A model generated the notes under the pieces. It had not been told where the DNA came from. It searched no databases and saw only the letters and a list, made by a program, of their open reading frames with translations. Shown in pieces: positions 1 to 25,865 of a DNA stretch of 32,000 nucleotides. Within the stretch, counting starts at the first letter, position 1. Every line of letters starts with the position of its first letter. The DNA comes from Cupriavidus necator (GTDB lineage: Bacteria > Pseudomonadota > Gammaproteobacteria > Burkholderiales > Burkholderiaceae), in contig NZ_CP066018.1 in assembly GCF_016127575.1 (NCBI RefSeq), forward strand, positions 3,930,001-3,962,000. The letters run 5' to 3'. A program made the position numbers and the translations under genes.

Positions 1-1
1 C

Positions 2-7835: not shown

Positions 7836-7837
7836 GA

Positions 7838-7867
7838 ATAAAAAAAACCCCTGCCGCCTGGCAGGGG
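7838..7867 (-). terminator. Rho-independent terminator downstream of ppiD; may also serve the convergent tesA-like gene
   Basis: Perfect 8-bp stem CCCCTGCC (7848-7855) / GGCAGGGG (7860-7867) with a 4-nt loop. The flanking A-run (7840-7847) is a U-tract on the minus strand. Confidence 0.75.
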
Positions 7868-7906
7868 TCCTTGCTGGCAGCGGGGCTGCCGGGGCTGATC
7901 TGGCGC

Positions 7907-9841
7907 TTACTCGGCGCCTTGCGGCTGCGTGGCACCCACCGGCGTCAGCATCTTGACCTTCGAGCGTGCCTTCAGGCTTTCATAGAATGCCTGCAGGTCG
8001 GTCTGGCCGGCGAGCTGCGACAGCTGCTGCGCTTCGGCCTGGCGTTGCGCCGGGTTGGCCTGCGTCGGCTGGCTGACCTTGGTGATACGGTAGACCGCGT
8101 AGCCTTCGGCCCCCAGGTCGACACCCACCACCGCGGGCAGCTTGTTCGCATCGGCGCGCAGCACCGCTTCGACCGCCTTCGGCGGCATACCCTCGGCCTT
8201 GGCGCGCGACACGGTCTGCACCGCGCCAAAGCCGTCGGCGCTGTCTGCCTTCTTCAGTGCGGCAAGCCGGGCCTCGCCGTCCTTGCGCGCCAGTTCGGCC
8301 GCCTGCTGGGCGATATAGCCCTCGCGCACCTTGGCTTCGACTTCCTCGAACTTGCGCACGGCCGCCGGGCGGTACTCGACGATGCGCGCGGCCACCAGCG
8401 TGTTCGGGGCCACCTGGACGGCCTCGGTGTTGCGCTTATTCTTGATCGCGTCGTCGCTGAACAGCGCCTTGAGCAGCTTGTCGTTGTTGAGCGGGCTCTG
8501 CGCGCCCAGCGCCGGGTTCGGCTGGCGCGTGACGTTGTCGGCGGTCTGGATGGTCAGCTTGAACTTGTCGGCGGCGGGCTTGAGGCTGTCAGCCTGCTCA
8601 TAGACGGTGTTGCCGAAGGCATCGGCCTGCTCGGCAAACTTCTTGTCGGCGAACTGCTTGCGCAGCTCAGCTTCGAGTTCCGTGCGCACGGCTTCCAGCG
8701 GCTTGGTCTCGGCGGGCTTGATGCCAGTCAGCTTGATGATGTGATAGCCGTAGTCGGTTTCCACCACGTCGCTGACCTGGCCATCCTTGAGCGCGTACAT
8801 GGCGTCCTCGAACGGCTTGACCAGCGCGCCGCGGCCCATGAAGCCCAGGTCGCCGCCCTTCTCGGCCGAGCCCGGGTCCTGCGAGTTCTTGCGCGCCACG
8901 TCGGCGAAGGTGTCAGGGTGCTTGCGCAGGTCCTCCAGCAGCTTGGTGGCCTTGTCCTTCGCGGCCTGGCGCTGGGCGGCCGGCGCATCCTTCGGCGCGC
9001 TGATCAGGATATGGCTGGCGCGGCGCTGCTCGTCGATGCGGAAGCGCGCGATATTGCTGTCGTAGTAGGACTTCAGCTCTTCGGGCGTGACCGCCTGCGT
9101 CGCGGCCAGGGCCTCGCCCGACAGCAGCAGGTACTCGACCTTGGCTTGTTCCGGCACCGAGAAGGCCTGCTGGTGGCTGTCGTAGTAGGCCTTCAGCGCG
9201 GCTGCATCGGGCTGCACCTTGGCGGTGTAGCCGGCCGGCTTGAACAGCAGCGCCTGCACATCGCGCTGCTGATCGCGCACGGCGATCAGGCGATCGAGCA
9301 GCGACTTGGGCACGAATGCCGTCGCGGCGACCGATGCGCCCAGCTGCTGCGTGGCCAGCTCGAAGCGCATGCGGGCATCGAACTGCTCGGGCGTCATGCC
9401 CTGCGACTGCAGCAGCTGCAGGTAGGCCTTGTCGTCGACCTTGCCGTCCTTGGTGCGCGGCAACTGCGCGATCGCCGGCAGGTTGCTGATTTCCTCGAGC
9501 AGCTTGGCGTCGGACACGGTCAGGTGCTCACGCGCCACGGCACTGGCCATCACGCGCTGCAGGATCAGCTGGTCCAGCACGGCCTTGCGGGCGTCCGGGC
9601 CTTCGAACTGGCGCGGGTCATAGCTGGCGCCCAGGACCTGGCGCGCGCGTTCGCTCTGGTCGCGCACGACGTTATCGATCTCCTGCACGCTGATGGCGCG
9701 GCCGTCGACCTTGGCGGCATCGTGCGAGCTGTCCATGAAGCGCGAATAGCTTTCCACGCCGAAGAACACGAACGACGGGAAAACAAGCACCAGCAGCAGC
9801 AAGAGCATCAGGCGCCGGTTGTTGCGTACGAAATCAAGCAT
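7907..9841 (-). CDS. ppiD: Periplasmic chaperone / peptidyl-prolyl isomerase PpiD
   Basis: N-terminal membrane anchor MLDFVRNNRRLMLLLLLVLVFPSFVFFG, a SurA-N-like region, and a parvulin domain (GGDLGFMGRGALVKPFEDA...YGYHIIK). Confidence 0.9.
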   Translation of the reverse strand: MLDFVRNNRRLMLLLLLVLVFPSFVFFGVESYSRFMDSSHDAAKVDGRAISVQEIDNVVRDQSERARQVLGASYDPRQFEGPDARKAVLDQLILQRVMASAVAREHLTVSDAKLLEEISNLPAIAQLPRTKDGKVDDKAYLQLLQSQGMTPEQFDARMRFELATQQLGASVAATAFVPKSLLDRLIAVRDQQRDVQALLFKPAGYTAKVQPDAAALKAYYDSHQQAFSVPEQAKVEYLLLSGEALAATQAVTPEELKSYYDSNIARFRIDEQRRASHILISAPKDAPAAQRQAAKDKATKLLEDLRKHPDTFADVARKNSQDPGSAEKGGDLGFMGRGALVKPFEDAMYALKDGQVSDVVETDYGYHIIKLTGIKPAETKPLEAVRTELEAELRKQFADKKFAEQADAFGNTVYEQADSLKPAADKFKLTIQTADNVTRQPNPALGAQSPLNNDKLLKALFSDDAIKNKRNTEAVQVAPNTLVAARIVEYRPAAVRKFEEVEAKVREGYIAQQAAELARKDGEARLAALKKADSADGFGAVQTVSRAKAEGMPPKAVEAVLRADANKLPAVVGVDLGAEGYAVYRITKVSQPTQANPAQRQAEAQQLSQLAGQTDLQAFYESLKARSKVKMLTPVGATQPQGAE

Positions 9842-9946
9842 GCGGATTCGGGTAGTGGATTGGCACGAAAGACAAACTCCACAATTCTATCAGGAGCCGC
9901 TGGGCACGCACCCTTGTGCAGGGTGGGAAACATGGGGGAGCAAATG

Positions 9947-9971
9947 AAAAACGCCCGCTAATGCGGGCGTT
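9947..9971 (-). terminator. Rho-independent terminator after tRNA-Asp
   Basis: Stem AACGCCCGC (9950-9958) / GCGGGCGTT (9963-9971) with loop TAAT. The minus-strand hairpin is followed by TTTTT. Confidence 0.7.
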
Positions 9972-9981
9972 TCCGTAAAAC

Positions 9982-10058
9982 TGGCGGAGTGGACGGGACT
10001 CGAACCCGCGACCCCCGGCGTGACAGGCCGGTATTCTAACCGACTGAACTACCACTCC
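9982..10058 (-). tRNA. tRNA-Asp (anticodon GTC)
   Basis: The reverse complement reads GGAGTGGTAGTTCAGTCGGTTAGAATACCGGCCTGTCACGCCGGGGGTCGCGGGTTCGAGTCCCGTCCACTCCGCCA. It has cloverleaf arms, anticodon loop CTGTCAC and an encoded CCA, and is near-identical in form to E. coli tRNA-Asp. Confidence 0.95.
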
Positions 10059-10110
10059 TGTGTCGGCGCTTGCTGCTGGCGATGCACATGCCCTTGCGAT
10101 GGCGAGTAGC

Positions 10111-10135
10111 GGGTGCTGAGGACGCCTTGCAAGGG
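10111..10135 (-). repeat. Decayed partial copy of tRNA-Val (anticodon-arm/variable region plus 3' acceptor strand, T-arm missing); candidate att-type direct repeat
   Basis: GGGTGCTGAGG (10111-10121) is identical to 21534-21544 of tRNA-Val. ACGCCTTGCAAGGG (10122-10135) matches 21563-21576 at 13 of 14 positions. Order and orientation are the same, with the 18 nt of the T-arm absent between the two blocks. Confidence 0.6.
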
Positions 10136-10312
10136 AATCGAATTTCCTTACAAATCATAAGCCTACAACGCCTACCAACCTTCCCTTGCCGACCGTGCCC
10201 TGCTGCAAGAGGCCGAACTATAGCTCGTGTTCATCATCTGCGCAATACCCGGATGACTCAACCTTGTACCCTCGCCGCTCTGCCCGATGAGGTGGCGTTC
10301 AGCGCAAACTCC

Positions 10313-11329
10313 TTACTCCTCAATCCGTATCCTTGCCGCCTTGACAGCCGCGCCCCATCGTTGATTCTCAGCCTGGACAAATTCACCGAACTTCTTGGGG
10401 TCAATCGTGATTGGCGTATAGCCCATGTCGGCGAGGCGTGCACGGAACTCTGGTTGGGACGTGGCGCGAGTCACCTGCGCCTGGATGGCATCAACCACCA
10501 CTTGCGGCGTATTTGGCGGAGCGAGCACGCCAAACCAGGTGTCAGCGTCGATGGCATAGCCACTTTCGGTGAGCGTAGGAATCTCCTTGATTGACGGGAA
10601 GCGCTCAGGAGATCCCAATGCATAAAGCCGCAGTTTGGTCTTGTTGGCGACCGCCAAAGGTGTGGGAATGAATGCATAGTCAACTTGACCACCCATGACA
10701 GCTGTCATGACCGGTGCAGCGCCGCCGAACGGCACTTCGAGCATGTTGTTGATGTGCGCCTTGGTCTTGAGCAATTCCATGCCCATTTGCGCCATGCTCC
10801 CCGGCCCCCAATGACCATAGGAAAGTGAGCTGGCTTTTGCCTTCGCGACGATGTCCTGGACAGTCCTGGTCTCGGCATCTGGACGACTTGCCAGAACGAA
10901 GCCCATCTTGGCTACGGGAGCAACGGGCCGGAAGCCATTGGGCTGAAACTGGACGACCTTCTTGTGAATATACGGTGCGACTGAAATAAAGTCGGCGGCC
11001 GCAAACAGCAACGTGTACCCATCCGGTGGCGATGCATAAGCGACATTGGCACCAATCACGCCGTTGGCACCCGGCCGGTTCTCCACCACGATGGGTTGGC
11101 CAAGTCCGTTACCAATGCCCGCCACGACAAGGCGGGCGAGTACATCCGTTCCCCCGCCTGGCGCATACGGAACGACCAGCCGAATCGGTTTAGTGGGCGT
11201 CCACCCCGGTTGAGCGTTTGCCGGATTGGCCGCCCACATTGCGGCGAACAGCGTCGCAGCGGCGCCCACAAGGCGAACGCCTCCCTTGGCGCTTCCAGCA
11301 AAGCGCCCCACTGATACCATGAAGTTCAT
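10313..11329 (-). CDS. Bug-family (TctC-like) tripartite tricarboxylate transporter substrate-binding protein
   Basis: Signal peptide, then the typical Bug N-terminus KPIRLVVPYAPGGGTDVLARL...ENRPGANG. AGGAGA SD 5 nt before ATG 11329. Confidence 0.85.
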   Translation of the reverse strand: MNFMVSVGRFAGSAKGGVRLVGAAATLFAAMWAANPANAQPGWTPTKPIRLVVPYAPGGGTDVLARLVVAGIGNGLGQPIVVENRPGANGVIGANVAYASPPDGYTLLFAAADFISVAPYIHKKVVQFQPNGFRPVAPVAKMGFVLASRPDAETRTVQDIVAKAKASSLSYGHWGPGSMAQMGMELLKTKAHINNMLEVPFGGAAPVMTAVMGGQVDYAFIPTPLAVANKTKLRLYALGSPERFPSIKEIPTLTESGYAIDADTWFGVLAPPNTPQVVVDAIQAQVTRATSQPEFRARLADMGYTPITIDPKKFGEFVQAENQRWGAAVKAARIRIEE

Positions 11330-11372
11330 GTTGTCTCCTGACTGTTCTAATGTGCCATCGTGTGGTTCGCAG

Positions 11373-12842
11373 TCATCTGTGGACTGCCTGCTGCGCTGCA
11401 TGCTCGCCGGCAAGCTTTCCGAATACCGCGCCTCGCATTACCGACGTAGCCCCCGTGTAGACCTGGTAGTAAAGGCCCGATGCTTCGCCCGCGGCATACA
11501 GTCCGGGGATAGCCTTGCCGTCGGCGTCCACAACCTGAGCGTCCCGATTGATCTTGATGCCTCCGAACGTGAAACAAATGCCAGGCATGATCGGATAGGC
11601 ATAGTAGGGTGCGCTGGCAATGGGGCGTGCCCAATTGGACTTCCTGGGGAGAATGCCTGAGGTCGCAAGATGGTCCTCTTCGAGCGGCATGAAAGTCCCG
11701 GTAGGGCAAGCCGCGTTGAACCCTCGCACAGTCCCTTCAAGGCCCTCAGCGGAAATGCCGCAACGCTGCGCCAACTCTGCCAGCGTTCCTGCCTGGAGGG
11801 GGGGCTGATCTGTGCGAATGCCTTTTCTCCAGTTCGGCACATCGTTGATCCGCTCGTCGAAGATGACGTAAGCGATGCCGTCTGGCTGGTCCTTGATCGC
11901 ACGGGAGATATGATCGTAATGCACGTCGACCGGTCCCGGCGCCTCATCCGTAAAGCGTAGACCGAGCTTGTTCACCAGGATCCCATACGGAAAATTCATC
12001 ACAAGCGCTTCGACCTGTGCGGATCGGGGATCCAGCGGCTCGGCGTGAAACGAGCTGAAATCTCCGGCTGGTGCCGCACCCAGGTTCAGCGCCATGCGGA
12101 TTCCTTCGCCCTTGTTGTAGTAGCCGCCGCGTGCGACAGGACGGATATAGCGCGCCGCGGGCCCCATGTACTGCGTCAGCATTTCCGGATTGCCTTCAAA
12201 TCCACCCGACGCAATCACAACCGAGCGGCCGAGGAGTTCGAATGCATTCCCATCGGCGCCAACCAGACCCAGTCGAAGCTGGCCATTGGCGTCGCGCCGG
12301 GACAGCGAGTTTGCTGTCGTCTCGTAGTAGAACTTGACGCCAAGATCGCCAGCACGCGCATGCAATGCCTCGATCATGGCCAGGCCTCCGCCAACCGGCA
12401 TTAGCCGAGGTGCCGCCGCCGTGACGAAGTAAGTGGGCAGCGCGTCAAAGCGAATGCCAAAGGTCTGGAGCCACTGCACCGTCGGGCCAGCTTCGCACGA
12501 AAGCGTCGACAGCAGTTCGGGGTCCGGCATGCCATGTGCCTTCACGTACGCGGGCCACTCTGCATACGGTGCGGCCATGCTGCGAACAACGTTGGGATCG
12601 AGATTGTCGCCCGCATTGGCGCTCAGCAAGTCATCGAAATCGTCGCTGACCTCGGTATCGCTCTTCATGCGGAAGTACGCCTCGGTCCATCGCGTGTTGC
12701 CGCCATACTCTGCTCGCGTGGCGCGCTCAAGCACGGCCACGCGAGCACCCTTCCCCGCGGCAGCCACGGCCGCCGACAAGCCGGAGATGCCGCAACCGAT
12801 AACGACGACATCGTAGTAGGCGGCACTGTGTGCAGCGCTCAT
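11373..12842 (-). CDS. FAD-dependent oxidoreductase, fumarate reductase/succinate dehydrogenase flavoprotein-like (TcuA / KstD-type)
   Basis: Dinucleotide fold YDVVVIGCGISGLSAAVAAA. The C-terminal region NWARPIASAPYYAYPIMPGICFTFGGIKIN...LYAAGE resembles TcuA-type flavoproteins (recalled, not searched). GAGGAGA SD before ATG 12842. Confidence 0.8.
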   Translation of the reverse strand: MSAAHSAAYYDVVVIGCGISGLSAAVAAAGKGARVAVLERATRAEYGGNTRWTEAYFRMKSDTEVSDDFDDLLSANAGDNLDPNVVRSMAAPYAEWPAYVKAHGMPDPELLSTLSCEAGPTVQWLQTFGIRFDALPTYFVTAAAPRLMPVGGGLAMIEALHARAGDLGVKFYYETTANSLSRRDANGQLRLGLVGADGNAFELLGRSVVIASGGFEGNPEMLTQYMGPAARYIRPVARGGYYNKGEGIRMALNLGAAPAGDFSSFHAEPLDPRSAQVEALVMNFPYGILVNKLGLRFTDEAPGPVDVHYDHISRAIKDQPDGIAYVIFDERINDVPNWRKGIRTDQPPLQAGTLAELAQRCGISAEGLEGTVRGFNAACPTGTFMPLEEDHLATSGILPRKSNWARPIASAPYYAYPIMPGICFTFGGIKINRDAQVVDADGKAIPGLYAAGEASGLYYQVYTGATSVMRGAVFGKLAGEHAAQQAVHR

Positions 12843-12865
12843 CGTGCGTCTCCTCTTTTTTGCTT

Positions 12866-14347
12866 TTAGTACTTCCGGACAAACGGATCCGGCATCTCGA
12901 GATCGGTGGATACCCATACGCTCTTGGTCTCCATGAACTCCTTGACCGCCTCTGTGCCACCCTCACGCCCTAGACCGCTATCCTTGTAGCCGCCAAATGG
13001 CGTGGTGAAACTCGTGGAGCGGTAGTTGTTGATCCAGACCGTTCCTGCTTGCAAGCGCTCAGACATGTACATGGCTCGGTGCAGACTCTTGGTCCATACG
13101 CCGGCCGCGAGGCCGAACCGGATATCGTTCGCGATGCGCAGCGCATCGTCTTCATCCTTGAACTTAAGCACAGACAGTACAGGGCCAAAGACCTCTTCCT
13201 GCGCAATGCGCATGTCGTTGGTCACATTGGTAAAAATTGTCGGCTCGACGAACTGACCCGCGCCGTAGTCCGCGCCGCTGCGCGTCTTGCCACCGAAAGC
13301 ACAGGTCGCCCCGTCTTCCCGAGCAATGCGGATGTAGTCGACCACCTTCTCAAACTGCGGACGGGTCGCCACAGGCCCCATCTGCACATCCGAACGCGCG
13401 GGATCACCGAGCTTCGCCTTGCTCGTGATTGCAACCAGCCGATCGACGAACTCGTCGTGAATGCTCTCCTGCAGCAGCAATCGCGAGCCGGCCATGCAAG
13501 TCTGGCCACCTGCCGAGAAGATCCCGGTGATGACCCCATTTGCTGCGTTGGTGAGGTCGGCATCGTCGAAGACGATATTCGGTGATTTTCCGCCAAGTTC
13601 CAGGGTGACCTTCTTGAAGTGTGCCGCCGCGGCAAGATTGACGCGTCGGCCTCCTTCATCCCCCCCGGTAAAGGCGATCATGGGCACTAGCGGATGCTCG
13701 ACCAGCGGCTCGCCGACATCCCTGCCGAATCCCGTCACCACATTGAAGACACCCGGCGGAAAGCCCGCCTTGACGAACAGCCTGGCCAGTTCCAGCAGGG
13801 ATGCCGAGGTGTGCTCGGACGGCTTGGCTACGATCGCATTGCCCGCACAAAGGGCAGGCGCAACCTTCCAGGCTGTCAGCAGCAGGGAAGAATTCCACGG
13901 CGTGATCGTGCCAACGACGCCCACCGGCTCCAGTCGGGTGTAGTTAAACACCTTCGGCTTGTCCATCGGCACGACCGCGCCCTGAATCTTGTCCGCCATG
14001 CCCGCATAGTAATAGAAGTACTTGGCGACATAGCCGACCTGGCCTCGTACTTCGCTGCGCAATTTGCCATTGTCACGCGCTTCCACTTCCGTCAGCAGAT
14101 CGATGTTCTCTTCGATCAGTCCGGCCAGCTTGTACAGCAGCATCCCGCGGTTAGTCGCCGACATTTTGGACCATGGCCCTTTCATCGCTGCGGCGGCAGC
14201 CTGAGCCGCGCGATCGACGTCTTCGCGTGTTCCGCGCGGAATCTCGGCCCATGCTTCGCCGGTGAACGGATCGAGCGATTCAAACCATTGACCTCGGCTC
14301 GGATCAACCCATTCGTTATTGATGAAGAGTTGGTATCGCGGCTGCAT
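12866..14347 (-). CDS. NAD(P)+-dependent aldehyde dehydrogenase
   Basis: ALDH hallmarks: LFINNEWV N-terminus, catalytic Glu motif ELGGKSP, catalytic Cys motif GQTCMAGSR. AGGAGA SD before ATG 14347. Confidence 0.9.
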   Translation of the reverse strand: MQPRYQLFINNEWVDPSRGQWFESLDPFTGEAWAEIPRGTREDVDRAAQAAAAAMKGPWSKMSATNRGMLLYKLAGLIEENIDLLTEVEARDNGKLRSEVRGQVGYVAKYFYYYAGMADKIQGAVVPMDKPKVFNYTRLEPVGVVGTITPWNSSLLLTAWKVAPALCAGNAIVAKPSEHTSASLLELARLFVKAGFPPGVFNVVTGFGRDVGEPLVEHPLVPMIAFTGGDEGGRRVNLAAAAHFKKVTLELGGKSPNIVFDDADLTNAANGVITGIFSAGGQTCMAGSRLLLQESIHDEFVDRLVAITSKAKLGDPARSDVQMGPVATRPQFEKVVDYIRIAREDGATCAFGGKTRSGADYGAGQFVEPTIFTNVTNDMRIAQEEVFGPVLSVLKFKDEDDALRIANDIRFGLAAGVWTKSLHRAMYMSERLQAGTVWINNYRSTSFTTPFGGYKDSGLGREGGTEAVKEFMETKSVWVSTDLEMPDPFVRKY

Positions 14348-14460
14348 CTATGTCTCCTGAGGTGAGTAAGGCCAGCGAAAAGCGCTGTATTGTGGGGATA
14401 TTCTGGCGGCCACAACGCGCGACGGCAAACGAGAAGAACTGTGGACTTGATGAGGTTTTC

Positions 14461-15681
14461 TCACGATCTGGAGGCCGCAAGATTCAGCCGGAATGCAGCC
14501 GCCAGCGCGTCTGCCACACGCGCAAGGTTTTGGCTGTTGAGCGCAGCGATGCAGATGCGACCCGAGTCAGCCCCGTAGATGGCGCACTCTTCGCGCAAGT
14601 ACTCCATTTGGGCTTGTTTGAGACCGGAATAGCTGAACATGCCCTTCTGGCGTTCGATGAAGGCGAAATCCTTATCGACACCTCGGGCCTTGAGCGCTTC
14701 ACTTAACTCTGTGCGCATGCGGCAGATCCGCAGGCGAATCGCTTCGAGCTCTGCCTGCCAATGCTCTCGCAGCAATGGCGTGGTCAGGACCTGCGTGACC
14801 AGCCGCCCGCCATGGGATGGCGGATTCGAGTAATTCGTACGGATCAGGAGTTTCAACTGCGAGCGCACGCGCACAGCCACATCTTCTGTCGGACAAACCA
14901 CAGAGAGGGCCCCGACTCGCTCGCCGTACAGCGAGAAGTTCTTTGAGAATGACGTGGCCACCATGCATGGCAATCCTGCCTCCACAAATGCGCGAGCCAC
15001 ACGCGCATCGGCGTCGAGGCCATCCCCGAAGCCCTGATATGCCATGTCAATCAGTGGTATCAGACGTCGCTGCGCGATGATATCGATGATCGCCGGCCAG
15101 GCATCCTGGGGCAGGTCGTACCCGGTCGGGTTGTGACAGCAGGCATGCAAGACCACAACCGTCCCGGCACTTGCATGCGACAGGTCGGTCAGCATGCCGC
15201 TCAGGTCTGGCTGCTCCGCATCGCGCGGAAGGTAGCGATACGTATGAACCTGGTAACCCGCCCTTGACAGTACTCCGCGGTGGTTTTCCCAAGTCGGCTC
15301 GCTAATCAGGGCACGCGCAGGCGCCCCCCATCGTCTCGCGAATTCTGCGCCAAGGCGCAGCGCACTGGTTCCGCCCACCGTTTGCACCGTGGCAACGCGC
15401 CTGGCCAGCGCCGAGTCCGCGTCGATACCGAAGACGATGGGAAGAACTGCATGCTGGAAGGCCACAGTGCCGTCGATAGGCTGATAACCGCGCGGCAGCC
15501 TCGCCGCTACCAGGTCAGCCTCAGCGTTTGCAATGCATTCGAGCAGGGGAATCCGGCCACCATCGTCGTGGTAGACACCTACCGCAAGGTTCACCTTCTC
15601 AGGACGCGGATCGTGTGCAAATTGCTCGTTCAGGCCAAGGATTGGATCCCTGGGAGCCATTGGAAGGGACGTCAGAAACAT
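14461..15681 (-). CDS. Class I aminotransferase, aspartate/aromatic amino acid type (AspC/TyrB family)
   Basis: N-terminus MF...APRDPILGL...NLAVGVY and the PLP-lysine motif SFSKNFSLYGERVG parallel E. coli AspC (SYSKNFGLYNERVG). Confidence 0.88.
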   Translation of the reverse strand: MFLTSLPMAPRDPILGLNEQFAHDPRPEKVNLAVGVYHDDGGRIPLLECIANAEADLVAARLPRGYQPIDGTVAFQHAVLPIVFGIDADSALARRVATVQTVGGTSALRLGAEFARRWGAPARALISEPTWENHRGVLSRAGYQVHTYRYLPRDAEQPDLSGMLTDLSHASAGTVVVLHACCHNPTGYDLPQDAWPAIIDIIAQRRLIPLIDMAYQGFGDGLDADARVARAFVEAGLPCMVATSFSKNFSLYGERVGALSVVCPTEDVAVRVRSQLKLLIRTNYSNPPSHGGRLVTQVLTTPLLREHWQAELEAIRLRICRMRTELSEALKARGVDKDFAFIERQKGMFSYSGLKQAQMEYLREECAIYGADSGRICIAALNSQNLARVADALAAAFRLNLAASRS

Positions 15682-15788
15682 CTTGAACTCGCTCTACTTG
15701 GTGGGAGCGAGTCATTCTCCGTGTCGCCTGGAACGGCAGTAAAACGAGTTTTTCTCCAGTACTGATGCGCCTGGCGCAAGTAGCCCCC

Positions 15789-15809
15789 AAAAAGTTACGC
15801 GAACGCAAC
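15789..15809 (-). terminator. Weak candidate intrinsic terminator after the LysR gene
   Basis: Imperfect hairpin GTTGCG-TTCG-CGTAAC on the minus strand, with one mismatch, followed by TTTTT. Confidence 0.3.
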
Positions 15810-15818
15810 TTATCGACC

Positions 15819-16724
15819 CTACTTTAGCCGGGATTTCCACTCCGCTTCGATCCCGACCACCCAGTCTCGAAATAGCTGCACGAGCGCCGAGTCCTTCTTC
15901 CGTTCCGGATACACGAGGCAATAGCGCTTCTCGTGCTTAAGAGACAGATCGAACGGCACGACAAGATCGTTGCGCTCGATCTCATCTTGTACATACATGC
16001 GGGGAACCAGGCCAGCGCCTAACCCTGCTCGCGCAGCTTCGATGACCATGCCGTACAACTCGAAATGCATGCTCGAAACCGGTGTAAAGTCCGCCACCGC
16101 GGCCATCGCAAACCAGTGCCGCCATGCTTCTGGCCGGGTGGACTTGTGCAAGAGCGGCAGTTCCGCCAAGTCTGCCGGCGCACCCAAGAGCTGGGTGTCA
16201 AAGTAGCGGGGGCTCACGATCGGGACCAGTTCTTCGTCAAACAGGTCGACCCTTACCACATTGGTCCAGGCCGGATGCTCGAAATTGAGCGCCGCATCGA
16301 AGTTGGTTTCGTCAAAGCTAAAGGGCAGTGGGCGCTCTGAGAGATTGAGAATAATGTCCGGATGACGCTCACGGAAATCGCGCAGGCGCGGCAGCAGCCA
16401 CCTGTTTGCAAACGTGGGGATCACCGCCAGTTCAAGCACGCCGCCAACGCCCTTGTGCGCCATCAGAGCGGAGGTGTGTGCCTCTATCTCCGCAAGGTTA
16501 CGCGCAATATTCTTCAGATACAGGCGGCCGGCATCATTGAGAACGACCTGCTTGCGGACCCGCGTGAAGAGCTTGACGCCCAGATATGTTTCCAGTGTCG
16601 CGATCTGCCTGCTCACGGCGCTCTCGGTCAGGCACACCTCGCTTGCCGCACGGGCAAAACTGCCTTGCCTTGCTGCCGCCTCGAAGACCGCCAGGGCGAT
16701 CGTGCTTGGAATCTTACGTCTCAT
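15819..16724 (-). CDS. LysR-family transcriptional regulator (GcvA-like subgroup)
   Basis: N-terminal wHTH (FEAAARQGSFARAASEVCLTESAVSRQIATLE) plus a LysR substrate-binding domain. Confidence 0.9.
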   Translation of the reverse strand: MRRKIPSTIALAVFEAAARQGSFARAASEVCLTESAVSRQIATLETYLGVKLFTRVRKQVVLNDAGRLYLKNIARNLAEIEAHTSALMAHKGVGGVLELAVIPTFANRWLLPRLRDFRERHPDIILNLSERPLPFSFDETNFDAALNFEHPAWTNVVRVDLFDEELVPIVSPRYFDTQLLGAPADLAELPLLHKSTRPEAWRHWFAMAAVADFTPVSSMHFELYGMVIEAARAGLGAGLVPRMYVQDEIERNDLVVPFDLSLKHEKRYCLVYPERKKDSALVQLFRDWVVGIEAEWKSRLK

Positions 16725-16861
16725 GGCTCACATCCACGTCTTGCTTACTCAGATTGCATTAGTTGTTGATTATTACTCAGTTGCCCGTATTACGCGGTTT
16801 CGCCAATACTCCGGGGCAACCCGCATGGTCCTGCAGACGGCGGATACGATCCGGAAATGCT

Positions 16862-17158
16862 ATGACCCAGAACTTGATGGCACGAATTCGCGAGGCGATT
16901 CTCGATGCCGCACCCTTAGAGCCTCTTGTCAGCCCTCTCGACCGGGATCAGGCCATTACCTTGCTGCAGGATGCCATCCTGGCTGACGACATCGAACGTC
17001 AGATCATCTGCCTCGCTGCCGCGGTGGAGCTACACGCGGTTGTTTCCCAGGATCTGTGGCGACATTGCGAGCGCAAGGCCGGAGACAGTGGCGATGCCGC
17101 ATTGAGTCGACTGTTCCGCAGCGCGCGTGGCCGATCCTTCGCCAGGATGATGCGCTGA
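16862..17158 (+). CDS. Hypothetical protein (98 aa), no family recognised; may be a 5' gene remnant
   Basis: ORF divergent from the LysR gene, with codon usage like the surrounding low-GC3 block and a weak SD. The C-terminal about 20 aa are Arg-rich (SRLFRSARGRSFARMMR), so the end may not be native. Confidence 0.3.
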   Translation: MTQNLMARIREAILDAAPLEPLVSPLDRDQAITLLQDAILADDIERQIICLAAAVELHAVVSQDLWRHCERKAGDSGDAALSRLFRSARGRSFARMMR

Positions 17159-17303
17159 TACGCATGCCTGACACCGGCGCTTGCTGTTCCCACTGTTGCA
17201 TATGGCTATTTTACGATCTGCAACAGCTCGACCCGCCCCGCCTCGAGCCGCGCCTGCATCACGGCGTGGGCCTGCCACTCGGCTGCCAATTCCGCCTGCA
17301 CGC

Positions 17304-17843
17304 TCAGGCGCACATGCGCGCCTGGAGCGCCATCAGCTCATGCTTGACGACCTTGCCCGCGGCATTGGTCGGCAGGGCCGCCATGAAGGCCACGGAACGT
17401 GGCACCTTATAGTTTGCCAGGCGGGCTTTGCACCATTCCAGCAATACCTCCCCGCTCATGCTCTCGCCTTCGCGCAACACCACGAAGGTGCGGCCAACCT
17501 CGCCCAGGCGCGTATCGGGTACGCCGACCACCGCGACCTGCGCCACCGCCGGATGCGTGCCAATCAGGTGCTCGATCTCCGCGGGATAGCAGTTGAAGCC
17601 GCCCACGATGAACATGTCCTTGAGCCGGCCGGTGATACACAGGTTTCCGGCGGCGTCGACGCTGCCGATGTCGCCTGTATGCAGCCACCCCGCGTCGTCG
17701 ATGGCCTCGCGTGTGGCGGCCTCGCCGTCGAAGTACCCACGCATGACGGTGTAGCCGCGGATCCACACTTCGCCCGGGTCACCGCCACTCAGCGAGCTGA
17801 CGGTACGATGAGCAGACGCATCGCCCTGGCCGGAGGGTGCCAT
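17304..17843 (-). pseudogene. 5'-truncated acyl-CoA synthetase / AMP-dependent ligase (C-terminal about 165 aa only)
   Basis: The clear ANL-superfamily C-terminal half is present (GEVWIRGYTVMRGY, WLHTGDIG, GRLKDMFIVGGFNCYPAEIE, HPAVAQVAVVGVPD, YKVPR). Similarity stops near 17800. The space for the missing about 350 N-terminal aa is occupied by an intact SDR gene on the other strand. Confidence 0.75.
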
Positions 17844-17993
17844 GGCGAAAAAATCGTCTCGGGCGCGGTTGTTTTGGTCCATTTGGACTATGTCGCACCC
17901 CGCGTGACCGGAAACAATGCGCCTATCAGCCGCGAATATCGGCCGACATGTCGCCGCTGCGCGACCAACCATGACATCCGGGAGAGACATCCA

Positions 17994-18791
17994 GTGACGA
18001 CCCAACACCCTGTCACCGACGATTTTCGCGTGACCCTCAACACGCCGGCCAGCGCGGTCGTGGTTACCGGCGGCGCGTCCGGCATTGGCGAGGCTTGTGC
18101 AGCGGCCCTGTCCGCCATCGGCCGGCCGGTCGCCATCTGGGATATCCAGGAGGACAAGGCGCGTGCCGTCGCCGCGGCGCTCGCCGAACGTTATGACGTG
18201 CCCACCTTCGGGCTCGGCATCGACCTGCGCGCCCCCGCCGGCCTGGAACACGCGCTGGTCCGCACCCGCGCCGCCCTGCCGGCGCTGGGCGGCATGGTGC
18301 ATGCTGCCGGCGTGGTGGACCAGAGCGGGATCGACGGCCTTACACAGGCGCGCTGGGACGCGGTGCTTGATGTCAACCTGCGCGCCATGGCCCTGCTGGT
18401 GCAAGCCATGCTGCCTGACCTGCGCGCGCAACCTGGCGCGGCAGTCGTCGGCATCGCGTCGATCAATGCCACGCTGGGCAACGCCCTGATTCCGGCTTAC
18501 TCCGCCTCCAAGGGCGGCCTGCTCTCGCTGGTGCGCTCGCTCGCGGACAGCCTGGGCCGCGACGGCATCCGCATCAACGCCGTCTCTCCCGGACAGATCC
18601 ACACACCGATGCTTCAACCTGCCATCGATGCCCTGCCCGAAGGCACCTTCGAGCGACGCATCCAGCTGGGCCGCCTCGGCACCCCCGCGGAGATCGGGCG
18701 AGTGGTCCGTTTCCTTCTGTCGGACGAGGCCAGCTACGTCACCGGCACCGAGCTCATCGTCGACGGCGGCAACATTCCTTCGCAGCGCTGA
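17994..18791 (+). CDS. SDR-family oxidoreductase
   Basis: TGGASGIG cofactor motif, NAxG-like HAAG, and catalytic YSASK. GTG start with GGAGAG 7 nt upstream. The upstream part of the 536-aa track ORF is an antisense shadow of the ligase remnant. Confidence 0.85.
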   Translation: MTTQHPVTDDFRVTLNTPASAVVVTGGASGIGEACAAALSAIGRPVAIWDIQEDKARAVAAALAERYDVPTFGLGIDLRAPAGLEHALVRTRAALPALGGMVHAAGVVDQSGIDGLTQARWDAVLDVNLRAMALLVQAMLPDLRAQPGAAVVGIASINATLGNALIPAYSASKGGLLSLVRSLADSLGRDGIRINAVSPGQIHTPMLQPAIDALPEGTFERRIQLGRLGTPAEIGRVVRFLLSDEASYVTGTELIVDGGNIPSQR

Positions 18792-18914
18792 ATCGGAGCG
18801 CCCTGTCCTGTGGCTGCTGGGCCGTTCTCATACTGGGTCGCCATCCTCCGGCCGGACGTCCAGCCCTGGTTCTTCCGTCAGCCTTTCGACGCTCGAGGCT
18901 CACCGCGGGACGCC

Positions 18915-20039
18915 CTATGCAGTCCTGGCCCGTTCTGCAAGCAGCTTCAGCAGCCGTGCCTCGTCGGCACGCAGGCGGCTGACGATGGCGACGCGCGCGC
19001 AGTCCTGCAATCCGTCGTCGATGAAGGCCTCGATCACCGCCGGATGGACATAGCACTTGCGGCACACCGCCACGGTGTTGCGCAGGCGCTGGGCCACTGA
19101 CTTGATGACCTCGGCCACGCACTTCCTGCGCGCTGCTTCGCCGTCCGCGCCGGCCGCGCGCAGCAGCGCGAGCGCATGCACGCTGCCCGCCCAGGTGCGG
19201 AAGTCCTTGGCAGTGAAGTCGCCGCCGGTCGCCTGTTGCAGGTAGGCGTTGACGTCGGCGGATCCGACCTCGCGGATCTCGCCGTCGCTGTCGCGATACT
19301 TGAACAGGCACTGGCCTGGCAGGTCGGCACAATTGCGCACGATGCGGGCCAGGCGCGGATCGTTGACCGATACGTCGTGGGTGATGCCGCTCTTGCCAGT
19401 GAACTGGAAACGCAGCCGGCTGCCGCGCACGGTGACATGGCGGCGGCGCAGCGTGGTGAGGCCGTAGGTGCGGTTCTGCCGCGCATATTGCGGACTACCC
19501 ACGCGCACAAGCGTGGCGTCGAGCAGTTGCACCACCGCCGCGACCACTTTTTCGCGCGGCATGCCGTTGCGGCGCAGGTCGCGCGCGACGCGCGCCCGCA
19601 AGCGGGGCAGTACGCTGCCGAAGGCCGGCAACCGCGCGTATTTGTCCGAATCGCGCTGCGCGCTCCACTCAGGGTGGTAGACATACTGCTTGCGGCCGCG
19701 CGCATCGCGCCCGGTCGCCTGCAGGTGGCCCGCAGGGTTCGCACAGATCCACACTTCCTCGTAGGCAGGAGGAATCGCCAGCGCAGCAATGCGTGCCAGC
19801 GTGGCGGCATCGTCCACGCGCTTGCCGTTGGCGTCGATGTAGGCAAAGCCGCCGCCCTGACGGCGGCGCCCGATGCCCGGCATACTGTCATCGACATAAC
19901 GCAACCCGGCCTCGCGCAATACCGTACGCAACGCTTTGTCGGCACCATTAGTCGGGAGGGCACTATCCAAGGCTGGGTCTCTTTCCGGGGCTGCCAGCGC
20001 GCCGTCCGGGTCTTCCGGCGCTTTATGCGTGCGGGCCAC
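18915..20039 (-). CDS. Type IB DNA topoisomerase (poxvirus/eukaryote-like bacterial TopIB)
   Basis: Family-typical blocks are present: YVDDSMPGIGRRR..GFAY.D, ALAIPPAYEEVWIC, GRDARGRKQYVYH, F.FTGKSG (catalytic Lys region), DFRTWAGS (Arg region) and RNTVAVCRKCYVHP (catalytic Tyr). The start is uncertain. GTG 20039 overlaps the upstream gene by 17 nt. TTG 19970 is an alternative. The ATGs at 20189-20270 would overlap the upstream gene by more than 160 nt. Confidence 0.85.
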   Translation of the reverse strand: MARTHKAPEDPDGALAAPERDPALDSALPTNGADKALRTVLREAGLRYVDDSMPGIGRRRQGGGFAYIDANGKRVDDAATLARIAALAIPPAYEEVWICANPAGHLQATGRDARGRKQYVYHPEWSAQRDSDKYARLPAFGSVLPRLRARVARDLRRNGMPREKVVAAVVQLLDATLVRVGSPQYARQNRTYGLTTLRRRHVTVRGSRLRFQFTGKSGITHDVSVNDPRLARIVRNCADLPGQCLFKYRDSDGEIREVGSADVNAYLQQATGGDFTAKDFRTWAGSVHALALLRAAGADGEAARRKCVAEVIKSVAQRLRNTVAVCRKCYVHPAVIEAFIDDGLQDCARVAIVSRLRADEARLLKLLAERARTA

Positions 20040-20589
20040 AGTGGCCTTGCCCGCGCTGCGCCTGTTCGTGGTAATGGCAAATGCGAGCCAGCGCCCAGTC
20101 GGCAGCGGCTTCGCGTACGGCGTTACGCGTCCCCGGAAAGCGCCGCGTTTCCGTGAACGCGGCAATACCCCCGGTGCTCCGCAGCACATCACGCGCCGCA
20201 TGGCCGTGGCGGCGGAACACCCAGGCAAAGCACTGCGTGCCCGCCGGGATATCGCCATCGCCGCCATCATCGGCGACGCCGGTGTTGGCGATCGCGAGGT
20301 CGGCGCCGGTCATCTCCATGGCGCCCAGCGCCATCGCCAGCGAGACCGCCTCGCTGGTCAGTCCGTGTTGCCTGATGGTCTCAGGCGGCACGTGCAGCAA
20401 CTGTTCCTTGGCCGAGGGCGAATACGCCACGATGGCGCAGTGCAAGACATCTCCGCAACCCGGCACCTCGGCGATGCGCGAGGCGATCAGCCCCGCGGTA
20501 CAGGACTCCGCCGTGACCACATGCAAATGGTGGCGCAGCAAATAGCGCGCAATGCTGCCGTTGTCGCTGCCGTTTTCCCCAAGCGTCAT
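20023..20589 (-). CDS. pncC: CinA C-terminal domain / PncC-like nicotinamide-nucleotide amidohydrolase
   Basis: TAESCTAG motif, YS.SAKEQLL, HG.TSEAV, and NTG..DDGG...P.GT..FAW align with E. coli PncC/YgaD as recalled. ATG 20589 overlaps the upstream stop (ATGA). Confidence 0.8.
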   Translation of the reverse strand: MTLGENGSDNGSIARYLLRHHLHVVTAESCTAGLIASRIAEVPGCGDVLHCAIVAYSPSAKEQLLHVPPETIRQHGLTSEAVSLAMALGAMEMTGADLAIANTGVADDGGDGDIPAGTQCFAWVFRRHGHAARDVLRSTGGIAAFTETRRFPGTRNAVREAAADWALARICHYHEQAQRGQGHCGPHA

Positions 20590-21185
20590 CGCTGCGCCTC
20601 CGACGCCTGCACAGACACTCCGTTGCTGCGCGAGACAGCATGCGTGGCCGGTGCTGCGGGTACGCGGCCGTCGCCGCCGCGGCCCTTCACGAACGTCACC
20701 TTGCCGTCGCGCTCCAGCACCACCCGGGTAAGGTCGTCGAAGCTGTCGGTCTGAAGTGTCGCACGCAGGTTGGCCTTGAGGTCCTCCTCGGTCAGCATTG
20801 CGTGGCTCACGCGCTCCCGGTCCAGTTCCCCCTCGCGCAGCAGGTCCAGCGCGTGGCCGCCAGTGGCGCGGTCGAATGCCGGAGAACGGCTCGACAGCCA
20901 GCCCACCACCCGGTGCAGAAGCACCAATGCCAGCCCGGCGGAAAACGCCACCGCGAACGAAGTGGCCCCGACCACGGCGCGCGACAACACCGCGCCCAGC
21001 AGCAACATGATGCACAGGTCGAACGATGTCTTTTGCGCGAAGGCCCGCCTGCCGGCCAACCGCAGCATCGCCCAGGTGCCGGCGAAGATGATGGCGGCAC
21101 GCACGGCGCCTTGCCACCACGCCAGGTCGTCACCTTCGCCCACGAGCTTGCGCATCGCATCGACGATCACTTCCACGCTGTCCAT
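20586..21185 (-). CDS. DUF421 (YetF-like) membrane protein
   Basis: N-terminal TM helices, R.FAQKTSFD..IMLLLGAVLS, and a YetF-type C-terminal domain (LLREGELDRERVSHAMLTEEDLKANLR...VVLERDGKVTFVK). Confidence 0.75.
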   Translation of the reverse strand: MDSVEVIVDAMRKLVGEGDDLAWWQGAVRAAIIFAGTWAMLRLAGRRAFAQKTSFDLCIMLLLGAVLSRAVVGATSFAVAFSAGLALVLLHRVVGWLSSRSPAFDRATGGHALDLLREGELDRERVSHAMLTEEDLKANLRATLQTDSFDDLTRVVLERDGKVTFVKGRGGDGRVPAAPATHAVSRSNGVSVQASEAQR

Positions 21186-21479
21186 GTCGGCGTCCGCAGT
21201 CGATTTCCTGACTGGTTCCGCAAGTTCCGCGCCAGGCTCACGACACTGGGCCGTGCTGCCGTGCACGTCCCATATGCGCTCATTCGCGCGGGAATGCGGG
21301 GAAATCGTACGTGCAGTGCCGGGCCAGGCCTGAAAAAACTGCGCAGAGCGCGCGCAACATCGGGAGCGAATAGCGCTTATCTGTGGGACGCCGGAAAACA
21401 CCGGCCGGGAGCGCCATGCCGAGCAACGGCGGAACAGCAATTTAGCGCGCGGCTCGGCCGGAGGGAGATGAAAATACCA

Positions 21480-21511
21480 ACAAAAAAGGACTTAGATCGC
21501 TCTAAGTCCTT
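21480..21511 (-). terminator. Rho-independent terminator immediately after tRNA-Val
   Basis: Perfect 11-bp AT-rich stem AAGGACTTAGA (21486-21496) / TCTAAGTCCTT (21501-21511) with a 4-nt loop. On the minus strand it is followed by TTTTTTGTT. Confidence 0.75.
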
Positions 21512-21529
21512 GATTTTGTTAGTCAAGCG

Positions 21530-21606
21530 TGGTGGGTGCTGAGGGGTTCGAACCCCCGACCTACGCCTTGTAAGGGCGCCGCTCTACCAACTGAGCTAAG
21601 CACCCG
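21530..21606 (-). tRNA. tRNA-Val (anticodon TAC)
   Basis: The reverse complement reads GGGTGCTTAGCTCAGTTGGTAGAGCGGCGCCCTTACAAGGCGTAGGTCGGGGGTTCGAACCCCTCAGCACCCACCA. It forms a cloverleaf with anticodon loop CTTACAA and an encoded CCA. Confidence 0.95.
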
Positions 21607-21734
21607 CTCGACCATCACAGGCTGGCTGCCTGCAACTTGCTGATCGCTCCACACCTCGCGGCAGTTGCCGTGGTTTGCGTTGCGAGGGCGCAAGTGTAAT
21701 ACAGGTGATTTCGGTTTGCCAAGGCCTGTGCGCG

Positions 21735-21772
21735 CAAAAAAACGCCGCCGGGCATCGCTACCCCGCGGCGTT
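21735..21772 (-). terminator. Rho-independent terminator after lon
   Basis: Stem AACGCCGC (21741-21748) / GCGGCGTT (21765-21772), with additional inner GGG/CCC pairs. On the minus strand it is followed by TTTTTTT. Confidence 0.7.
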
Positions 21773-21795
21773 TCGTTCATGCGGCCAAAGCTGTG

Positions 21796-24210: not shown

Positions 24211-24372
24211 TTTCCCCAAGTCAGTCATTTAAGGCGTAAATTGGGCCGCCCGAATCGATTACAAGATACGTGCCAATCGATTCATCAAGGCAGGCAGATG
24301 CCGCTCCCTGCACTTGCTGGCCCCTCTGAAACAGCATACCCGCGTTTCCTCCCTCTCGTCGGTAGAAATAAA

Positions 24373-24404
24373 CAAAAAAAGCCGCTCGCTTCTACGCGAA
24401 CGGC
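24373..24404 (-). terminator. Rho-independent terminator after clpX
   Basis: Stem GCCGCTCGC (24381-24389) / GCGAACGGC (24396-24404) with one mismatch. On the minus strand it is followed by TTTTTTTGTTT. Confidence 0.65.
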
Positions 24405-24462
24405 CTTTTCGCCCGGCTGCCGGTGTGGTCCCGACCACTTACCACGTCTGGCAGCCCTCGCG

Positions 24463-25740
<1,278 letters not shown>

Positions 25741-25865
25741 AGGAATCAGTCACTTATGCAGGGCGCACACCGCGGGGCGACAGGCTCCCCAGCGATACGC
25801 TTCAAACGCATCATACGCCAAAACAATTGGCACCACCGGCGGTTCCCCCCGGCTGTGGGGCAAAA

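Follow-up and report, generated by a model that had tools for sequence, protein, structure and literature searches.

We analysed a 32,000-nt stretch of chromosome 1 of Cupriavidus necator H16 (the window, to whose positions all coordinates refer), in which two tRNA genes separate lon from ppiD. The core genes that frame the interval are the following:

7907-9841, minus strand: ppiD
9982-10058, minus strand: tRNA-Asp(GTC), called by ARAGORN and Rfam
21530-21605, minus strand: tRNA-Val(TAC), called by ARAGORN and Rfam
21796-24207, minus strand: lon

Past lon, the genes tig, clpP and clpX are contiguous on the minus strand, and ppiD has the same orientation, as described in the initial annotation. 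The spacing from tRNA-Val to tRNA-Asp is 11,471 bp, and the 10 genes and one remnant originally counted in this 11.4-kb interval are indeed there. An Rfam scan of the interval returned nothing except the two tRNAs. A terminator-like hairpin, read by eye, follows tRNA-Asp.

Most relatives have no such interval. In about 46 of the 55 Cupriavidus species loci, only 26-83 bp separate tRNA-Val from tRNA-Asp (both tRNAs were called at that distance in 45 species loci, and they are adjacent by sequence in 2 more), and from this close spacing it follows that the two tRNAs of the empty-site species are probably co-transcribed. Homology of H16 to the empty-site loci ends at 10121 and restarts at 21526-21529, and it takes in a short stretch next to tRNA-Asp:

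10059-10106 (48 nt), minus strand: native, ancestral tRNA-Val/tRNA-Asp spacer, aligning colinearly with the spacer at empty sites

The whole of 10059-21529 had been proposed as the inserted segment, which holds for most of it and fails for these 48 nt. The alignments thereby show the segment to be an insertion absent from most relatives. In a tree built on 6.3 kb of flanking DNA, the occupied species all group in a single clade (bootstrap support 100%), and the outgroups all have adjacent tRNA-Val and tRNA-Asp. Two empty-site members, TMH.W2 and C. lacunae, nest within the occupied clade as sister to H16 and Cupriavidus sp. UYPR2.512 (97% bootstrap), which implies either a precise loss or two gains that happened independently.

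Base composition, for which a GC and GC3 profile had been suggested at the outset, is atypical for the host core. GC over 10000-17000 is 0.58-0.61, compared with 0.62-0.72 in the flanks, and GC3, which is 0.87-0.90 in lon, clpX and ppiD, is 0.79-0.85 in the genes nearest tRNA-Val and 0.64-0.72 in a low-GC module. That the 11 kb might be ancestral core DNA, deleted in other species, is thus scarcely credible: the absence of mobility genes is the one point in its favour, and it is refuted by the adjacent tRNAs of most species and all outgroups, by the single derived clade that holds the occupied species, and by a tRNA-half repeat at the boundary (below), with the atypical GC3 and a cargo that is unrelated between occupied species also speaking against it. 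Clearly, the relatives do not all carry the same 11 kb in host-like composition.

The hupB gene, found at the corresponding place in other Betaproteobacteria, is missing from the H16 locus, as had been noted together with the proposed insertion. Its absence is real, and the island did not cause it, because every Cupriavidus locus examined, empty or occupied, lacks hupB at this position. By this comparison, the lack of hupB is a genus-wide Cupriavidus trait that is independent of the island.

Insertion at the 3' end of tRNA-Val, as the initial annotation had proposed, is borne out by a displaced 3' half of this tRNA, which marks the far boundary:

21530-21576, minus strand: putative att core, the 3' 47 nt of tRNA-Val (anticodon loop to CCA), with a second copy at the opposite end of the island
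10107-10135 (29 nt), minus strand: displaced 3' half of tRNA-Val (putative attR remnant), from repeat comparison

In UYPR2.512, the copy of the tRNA-Val 3' half is 47 nt long, is identical at 45 of 47 positions, and lies ~48 nt upstream of tRNA-Asp. The H16 copy has been reduced to 29 nt by a 19-nt internal deletion, which is common to strains of a second cargo variant (variant B), and a degenerate copy is present in C. alkaliphilus. The boundaries have no meaningful inverted repeats. A second candidate fragment of tRNA-Val, at 10262-10291 (5' half, 22/30 match), straddles a module junction and was set aside, as we estimate that chance alone would produce about one match of this quality in the region.

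Inside these limits, the two extremities of the inserted element are conserved:

21482-21529 (48 nt), minus strand: conserved left end
21486-21511, beginning 18 nt after tRNA-Val: intrinsic-terminator-like hairpin (11-bp stem and T run), from a terminator scan
10136-10274, minus strand: conserved right end
10240-10245 and 10217-10222, minus strand: promoter-like blocks reading toward tRNA-Asp (-35 TTGCGC and -10 TATAGT, 17-nt spacer)

C. taiwanensis and four viral contigs with an integrase have the same left-end hairpin, with compensatory changes in its stem; the empty-site loci retrieved all lack it. At the right end, every occupied locus has the 16-mer GCTATAGTTCGGCCTC, which none of the 74 other loci compared contains, and across 7 species this end consists of two invariant blocks with a variable spacer of 17-18 nt. 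From these features, we infer that the left end acts as a terminator and the right end as a promoter; a generic promoter scan did not flag the right-end motif, of which the -35 matches at only 3 of 6 positions. We also looked for an intact progenitor carrying the right-end 16-mer. Among the matches listed were 6 viral and 98 metagenome sequences, which we regard as chance matches because none of the 86 checked shares any further similarity, and the gapped -35/-10 pattern of the right end has no match in viral sequences.

The closest indication of what the founding element may have been comes from its left end. In four IMG/VR contigs (UViG 2643221672, 2731957648, 3300017792 and 3300005515), hupB and tRNA-Val are followed by the same hairpin and by a 374-aa tyrosine integrase (PF00589, phrog_1), which lies ~170 nt past the tRNA. 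In alignment, the hairpin stands at an equal offset from tRNA-Val in H16 and in these contigs, and in C. taiwanensis the homology runs ~110 nt past tRNA-Val. The contigs come from a genus other than Cupriavidus (hupB upstream, GC 0.60-0.65), and neither a shorter tRNA-Val 3' pattern nor tRNA-Asp searches revealed a second tRNA-Val copy in them. Alignment thus shows the H16 left end to be homologous to the presumptive attL end of these integrase-bearing contigs, a homology that concerns the left end only.

No integrase was recovered from the island itself. The initial annotation had recognised no integrase, transposase or conjugation gene from the letters alone, and a Pfam scan of all island ORFs found no integrase (PF00589), transposase or conjugation domain, and Pfam and NCBIfam together gave metabolic, regulatory and housekeeping domains only, with no phage, conjugation or transposase genes. 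Searches by tblastn with two integrases (L114 and that of the viral contigs) gave no match in the window at E<=1; the sole match up to E=10 covers 30 aa at E=4 and is noise. Likewise, no integrase or remnant of one was found in UYPR2.512, at the left end of C. taiwanensis, or in the 10 kb adjoining tRNA-Asp in five other species. Because none of the occupied loci examined has an integrase, its involvement rests on the tRNA repeat and the left-end homology, from which we infer that the original insertion was made by such an enzyme.

The initial annotation had called the ORFs of the interval unrelated; rather, they fall into three modules, of which the one nearest tRNA-Val (Layer 1, with genes identified by domain searches) contains a topoisomerase:

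18915-21185, minus strand: Layer 1, whole
20586-21185, minus strand: DUF421-like membrane protein
20023-20589, minus strand: CinA/PncC-domain protein
18915-20039, minus strand: bacterial type IB topoisomerase (TopIB)

At the same site in UYPR2.512, TopIB is 96% and the DUF421-like protein 93% identical to H16, and CinA is a 25-aa trace. TopIB enzymes and tyrosine recombinases have a common fold and chemistry, and in H16 and UYPR2.512 TopIB occupies the tRNA-proximal part, a position roughly like that expected of an integrase, so that it might be the recombinase of the island. We hold this to be very unlikely. Orthologs that are 76-84% identical lie away from tRNAs in a stress-type cluster (LigD, PRC, DUF3182, BON, ParB-like), both in an empty-site strain (on a 2.67-Mb replicon) and in one further assembly; in C. 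taiwanensis, the 10 kb beside tRNA-Val contain no TopIB; and the integrase of the family with the same left end is an ordinary tyrosine integrase.

The second module, Layer 2, is represented in H16 by remnants:

17278-18805, no single strand: Layer 2 remnants
17994-18791, plus strand: SDR gene
17304-17882, minus strand: final (3') third of an acyl-CoA ligase gene of FadD3 type (matches positions 349-500 of the 500-position FadD3 model)

The complete 8.7-kb cluster (SDR, a 389-aa ORF, Rieske/KshA, SDR, SDR, SnoaL, OYE, FadD3) is preserved in other strains of this species, whereas in H16 a 7.2-kb deletion within it has joined the remnants at 17783/17784. This deletion explains the truncated FadD3-type gene annotated in H16. 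The SDR-to-FadD3 cluster is 89.6-91% identical to, and colinear with, megaplasmid DNA of C. necator C39 and N-1, and it is the only part for which a plasmid search found relatives; the search found none for the third, low-GC module:

10275-17277, minus strand: Layer 3, 7.0-kb low-GC module
16862-17158, plus strand: 98-aa ORF
15819-16724, minus strand: GcvA-type LysR regulator
14461-15681, minus strand: aromatic amino-acid aminotransferase
12866-14347, minus strand: aldehyde dehydrogenase
11373-12842, minus strand: TcuA-like FAD dehydrogenase (flavoprotein)
10313-11329, minus strand: TctC/Bug solute-binding protein

The role of the cargo is probably the catabolism of an amino or carboxylic acid. 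A 6.9-kb copy of Layer 3, 94.9% identical, lies in a different context in another Cupriavidus genome, where it adjoins a phage-type integrase. Variant-B strains are without Layer 3, and its junctions share CGAG only. Together, these alignments show the layering and the junctions of the island interior.

Turnover of cargo is not limited to H16. Among 7 species, the interval holds at least five unrelated cargo sets with the ends kept, and within the H16 species there are two cargo variants between flanks that are 99.4-99.6% identical. On this comparative evidence the interval is a region of genomic plasticity, or hotspot of horizontal gene transfer, and the recombination hotspot that was one of the two initial suggestions describes it well. 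Could it always have been a hotspot, without any integrative element, filled with DNA that came in by conjugation or transduction and was then incorporated either illegitimately or through homologous recombination within the conserved lon and ppiD flanks? The missing integrases of all occupied loci examined fit that history, as do the cargo differences between strains with near-identical flanks and the junctions of both H16-specific events (the 7.2-kb deletion and the 7.0-kb insertion), where there is only microhomology of 2-4 nt. It leaves unexplained, however, the 47-nt distal copy of the tRNA-Val 3' half and the 48-110 nt of homology to the viral attL end, and we consider it improbable as an account of the whole locus. 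Such a process is better seen as fitting the later turnover of the cargo than the origin of the interval.

The other initial suggestion, an old and immobilised island, agrees with the empty sites, the tRNA-half repeat, the left-end homology and the lack of an integrase. We think it very probable that a phage-like tyrosine-integrase element entered tRNA-Val(TAC), decayed, and had its interior rebuilt several times. The element would have entered a lon-tRNA-Val-tRNA-Asp-ppiD locus, either in a single ancestor of the C. necator H16/C. taiwanensis group or in two ancestors that were close relatives of each other, with a crossover in or near the anticodon loop. The 3' half of tRNA-Val would then have been rebuilt by element DNA, which also supplied the terminator hairpin, and the original half would have been displaced to the far end. 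Later loss of the integrase and all other mobility genes would have left the element immobile, its presumed survivors being 48 nt with the terminator, and ~170 nt that hold what remains of the tRNA half and a promoter-like element directed at tRNA-Asp. As for the layers of H16, the DUF421-like, CinA and TopIB genes came first and the 8.7-kb megaplasmid-type SDR-to-FadD3 catabolic cluster second, after which H16 itself underwent the deletion in this cluster and gained the low-GC module.

As for why the ends should have outlasted the rest, we offer a tentative reading, somewhat less likely to be right than wrong, in which both have been domesticated: the insertion would have split what was probably a joint transcript of tRNA-Val and tRNA-Asp, the left end would now terminate tRNA-Val transcription, the right end would serve as the new tRNA-Asp promoter, and purifying selection would have kept them across at least 7 species. 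This reading covers ends of ~50 nt and ~170 nt, between which the interior has been replaced, and, if it is true, the domesticated ends would amount to a stable landing pad at which cassettes are exchanged.

Among known systems, tRNA-associated islands and prophages (P4-like and related) use tyrosine integrases with a crossover in the anticodon or T loop, and are classed by tRNA sublocation. The H16 locus resembles them in its insertion at the 3' side of a tRNA rebuilt by element DNA, in a tRNA 3' half (from the anticodon loop to CCA, 47 nt) that recurs as a direct repeat at the distal end, and in having empty sites in relatives, atypical composition, and a left end homologous to integrase-bearing contigs. 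It differs in that it has no integrase, excisionase, phage or transfer genes, and in an interior made up entirely of metabolic or housekeeping-type cargo from at least three separate origins. Integrase-less hotspots, or regions of genomic plasticity, are a concept from the comparative genomics of Pseudomonas, E. coli and other bacteria, and, like them, the H16 locus is a core-flanked interval beside a tRNA with variable gene sets, mostly without mobility genes. Unlike them, it can be traced to a specific integration whose founder has two short ends kept around every cargo. A third comparison is with the catabolic or metabolic islands of Cupriavidus and Ralstonia. Among these, the CMGI islands of C. 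metallidurans CH34 are said to span tens of kb or more and mostly to carry integrases, Tn4371-type transfer genes or transposases, whereas the H16 island is 11.4 kb long and has none of those mobility genes. The likeness to the CMGI islands (PMC2864759) lies in accessory catabolic clusters within a Cupriavidus chromosome that have relatives on megaplasmids or chromids.

A literature search yielded no paper dealing with this locus or with its presumed locus tags, H16_A1486 to H16_A1494. The segment is a genuine but ordinary genomic island, and leaves the current understanding of such islands unchanged. It does provide a clear worked example of a tRNA-integrated element decaying to an integrase-less hotspot, in which the att repeat, the founder ends and three cargo layers are still readable. 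C. necator H16 serves as a major chassis for making bioplastics and for production from CO2, and the interval at ~10.1-21.5 kb is plausibly a dispensable region or a neutral integration site, because it is accessory, variable between strains of the same species, and bounded by defined junctions.

The DNA between tRNA-Val and tRNA-Asp in Cupriavidus necator H16 is what is left of a decayed tRNA-Val island; it lacks an integrase and has turned into a hotspot where metabolic modules are exchanged. The finding is real, and the kind of element is already well known; this island is a further case. The initial annotation had proposed an old, immobilised island or a recombination hotspot at tRNA-Val, and empty sites in relatives, a repeat of half the tRNA, the lack of an integrase, and the turnover of cargo all support this proposal.

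The window is 100% identical to the C. necator chromosome CP196472.1, and 99.995% identical (19.8 kb compared) to CP039287.1, which we take to be H16 chromosome 1. Among the other species in the genome collection, Cupriavidus sp. UYPR2.512 is closest, with a 98% identical PpiD. In the window, lon ends at 21796, with tig, clpP, and clpX contiguous beyond it, and ppiD starts at 9841. Since tRNA-Val lies on the minus strand, its 3' end faces into the interval. The features are as follows.

tRNA genes and interval genes of the window
9982-10058, minus strand: tRNA-Asp(GTC)
21530-21605, minus strand: tRNA-Val(TAC)
Interval: membrane protein, weakly DUF421-like
Interval: CinA/PncC-domain protein
Interval: bacterial type IB topoisomerase (TopIB)
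Interval: SDR
Interval: FadD3-type acyl-CoA ligase, 3' third only
Interval: 98-aa ORF
Interval: LysR regulator, GcvA-type
Interval: aromatic amino-acid aminotransferase
Interval: aldehyde dehydrogenase
Interval: FAD dehydrogenase, TcuA-like
Interval: TctC/Bug binding protein

None of the interval's genes carries an integrase, transposase, or transfer domain, which bears out the initial reading that mobility and conjugation genes are missing here. The composition also departs from the core, as expected of an insertion: GC3 is 0.64-0.72 in the low-GC genes and 0.79-0.85 in the tRNA-Val-proximal genes, vs. 0.87-0.90 in lon, clpX, and ppiD. GC is 0.58-0.61 over 10000-17000 and ~0.68 over 17500-21000.

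For the comparison, each species was represented by the ppiD locus of a single genome, which gave 55 Cupriavidus loci among others. The two tRNAs were called 26-83 bp apart in 45 of the 55 and are adjacent by sequence in 2 more, so the empty site that the initial annotation had looked to for an insertion is present in most Cupriavidus species. In six species (UYPR2.512, "C. necator" SHC 2-3, C. nantongensis, C. alkaliphilus, C. phytorum, and C. neocaledonicus), no tRNA-Val was found within ~9.6 kb upstream of tRNA-Asp. Against the empty-site loci, homology of the window on the Asp side reaches 10121, and on the Val side it restarts at 21526-21529.

The tRNA-Asp side retains an att-type repeat. 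In UYPR2.512, the 3' half of tRNA-Val is repeated ~48 nt upstream of tRNA-Asp as a 47-nt stretch, CCCTTACAAGGCATAGGTCGGGGGTTCGAACCCCTCAGCACCCGCCA (read from tRNA-Val to tRNA-Asp), which covers the anticodon loop through CCA, with 45 of 47 positions identical. The H16 copy, at 10107-10135, has lost 19 internal nt, a deletion common to other strains of its species, and in C. alkaliphilus the copy is degenerate. The 48 nt from the H16 remnant to tRNA-Asp (10059-10106) align colinearly with the spacer native to empty-site species. When a tyrosine integrase inserts an element into a tRNA gene, the 3' half of the gene is replaced by one that the element brings, and the original one ends up at the distal end; the repeat layout is the classical signature of such integration. 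Separately, 10262-10291 resembles the tRNA-Val 5' half from D-arm to anticodon stem (22 of 30 positions match) and lies across the right junction of the low-GC module (10275-17277); we estimate that about one such match is expected in the region by chance.

At the left end, 18 nt past tRNA-Val, is a hairpin with an 11-bp stem followed by a T run (21486-21511). In C. taiwanensis this hairpin is found at the same position and differs by a compensatory pair change and a G-U change; the homology of C. taiwanensis to H16 stops at 21482. Searching a viral collection (IMG/VR) with the tRNA-Val 3' half recovered four contigs (L224-L227) in which hupB and tRNA-Val are followed, after ~20 nt, by the same hairpin, and a tyrosine integrase of 374 aa is encoded ~170 nt past the tRNA. 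Identity among these integrases is 87-100%, and they match PF00589 and phrog_1; in L226, the sole contig examined further, DNA methyltransferases and uncharacterised phage-family proteins follow. In an alignment of the left ends including the viral contigs (A3), the position and sequence of the hairpin are nearly invariant and stem substitutions are compensatory. C. taiwanensis can be aligned with the viral contigs for ~110 nt past the tRNA, to ~60 nt short of their integrase gene start. The hairpin is absent from all fetched empty-site loci. Together, this homology and this absence identify the H16 left end as the attL end of a phage-like, integrase-bearing family targeting this tRNA-Val, now without the integrase itself. 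Just past the conserved hairpin region in C. taiwanensis LT976856.1 (L118, 12728-12985), an 85-aa ORF appears by eye to resemble the N-terminal helix-turn-helix part of an IS-type transposase.

The viral contigs also bear on hupB, which ends ~30 nt before their tRNA-Val; the host genus of these prophages probably has the order lon-hupB-tRNA-Val. In Rhodocyclales, Nitrosospira, and other Betaproteobacteria loci, hupB is directly upstream of ppiD. As the initial annotation noted, hupB is missing here, but this is not an effect of the island: none of the Cupriavidus loci examined has hupB in the lon-ppiD interval, whether the site is empty or occupied, and its absence is therefore a genus-level trait. 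It was lost or moved from this position in Cupriavidus.

At the right end (10136-10274), the 16-mer GCTATAGTTCGGCCTC (10209-10224) is present in all occupied loci and in 0 of 74 other loci compared. Across seven aligned species, two blocks stay invariant, GT(A/C)TTGC(G/A)C and GCTATAGTTCGGCCTC, with a variable spacer of 17-18 nt and variable flanks. The blocks fit a sigma-70-type pattern (TTGCGC-N17-TATAGT) and may form a promoter directed at tRNA-Asp. A generic promoter scan did not call this motif, because just 3 of the 6 bases in its -35 hexamer fit the consensus, and we therefore only infer the function. The same scan gave a candidate promoter upstream of tRNA-Val (TTGGCA-N18-TACACT). Given their close spacing, the two tRNAs are presumably co-transcribed in empty-site species, and an insertion between them would separate tRNA-Asp from any promoter upstream of tRNA-Val. 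The one mildly unusual feature of the island is that both short founder ends, one with a terminator-like hairpin and the other with a putative promoter, have been retained in at least seven species whose enclosed cargo is completely different.

Cargo of the locus in other species
UYPR2.512: common to the window, TopIB (96%) and the DUF421-like gene (93%) only; remainder, aspartase, Lrp, different aminotransferase, RidA, porin, amino-acid permease
SHC 2-3: phenol-MetA-type porin, GntR, LysR, HpcH aldolase, HisD-like dehydrogenase, TctC, PLP decarboxylase
C. nantongensis: xanthine-dehydrogenase-type molybdoenzymes, ABC transporter, LacI
C. phytorum: M20 peptidase among partly scanned ORFs; 39-40%-identical aldehyde dehydrogenase
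C. neocaledonicus: ORFs partly scanned; 39-40%-identical aldehyde dehydrogenase
C. alkaliphilus: xanthine-dehydrogenase-type genes, STAND regulator, hydrolases
C. taiwanensis, left end (no integrase there): PAS-cyclase, phenol-MetA porin, amine oxidase, flavin reductase, SmoA-like monooxygenase, SDR, AraC

In UYPR2.512, a 25-aa trace of CinA lies between the DUF421-like gene and TopIB (L001, 871-945), and CinA was therefore probably deleted there rather than gained in H16. TopIB was considered as the island's recombinase and is better read as H16 cargo: orthologs (76-84% identical) sit in a stress-type cluster with LigD, PRC, DUF3182, BON, and ParB-like genes, both on a 2.67-Mb replicon of the empty-site strain TMH.W2 and in one other assembly.

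In a neighbour-joining tree of the ppiD-side flank (6,343 ungapped columns), which may itself be affected by recombination, the seven occupied species and the empty-site TMH.W2 and C. lacunae form one clade (100% bootstrap), outside which all species are empty-site. TMH.W2 and C. lacunae are sister to H16 and UYPR2.512 (97% support). A single gain with one precise loss is as parsimonious as two independent gains of elements from one family; a precise loss is mechanistically plausible via integrase-mediated excision or recombination between the 47-nt repeats.

Genomes with identical Lon split into two groups, variant A (the window's arrangement) and variant B (for example, GCA_001481455.1, GCA_000389805.1, and GCA_051903315.1). 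Variant B reads tRNA-Val, DUF421, CinA, TopIB, SDR, 389-aa ORF, Rieske/KshA-like oxygenase, SDR, SDR, SnoaL, OYE, full-length FadD3-type ligase, right end, tRNA-Asp.

Alignment of the window to a composite variant B
17783-32000: common to A and B, 99.4%
7.2 kb: variant-B-specific stretch
17278-17784: common to A and B, ligase 3' end, 97.4%
10275-17277: H16-specific block
10274 down to 1: common to A and B; right end (9943-10274) 96.4%, 1-10018 99.6%

From these blocks, two events separate H16 from a B-like ancestor. One is a 7.2-kb deletion, with 2-3 nt of microhomology at its junction; in the other, 7.0 kb were inserted after the ligase stop codon, ahead of the right end, and the junctions share only CGAG. 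A C. necator C39 plasmid has 8.7 kb colinear with the variant B SDR-to-FadD3 cluster (89.6% identity), and the part retained in H16 (~1 kb around SDR) is 91% identical to this plasmid and to the N-1 megaplasmid. A 6.9-kb copy of the low-GC module, 94.9% identical, stands in a different context in the Cupriavidus assembly GCA_964252715.2, where it immediately adjoins a 408-aa phage-type integrase and KfrA, H-NS-like, SIR2-like, and DUF87 genes (L114, 12677-21470). No tRNA is found at the junction of copy and integrase region, the latter probably being a separate integrative island with defence-type cargo. Cupriavidus sp. USMAA2-4 has a more distant version of the module (77-80% identical) without the aminotransferase.

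Between tRNA-Asp and ppiD, most species have roughly 140-300 bp; ~1.9 kb of extra DNA in Cupriavidus sp. H19C3 (L047) and ~0.8 kb in Burkholderiaceae bacterium 16 (L021) indicate that this side is also variable in some lineages. In addition, a 9.8-kb Logan contig (L101, SRR24949872; the same contig reported in 5 samples) is 99.9% identical to 5598-10071 and has gltX, tRNA-Ala, tRNA-Glu, and tRNA-Asp joined directly to ppiD, reflecting either a second tRNA-Asp copy with short-read assembly across the 77-nt repeat, or recombination between two tRNA-Asp genes in some H16-like strains.
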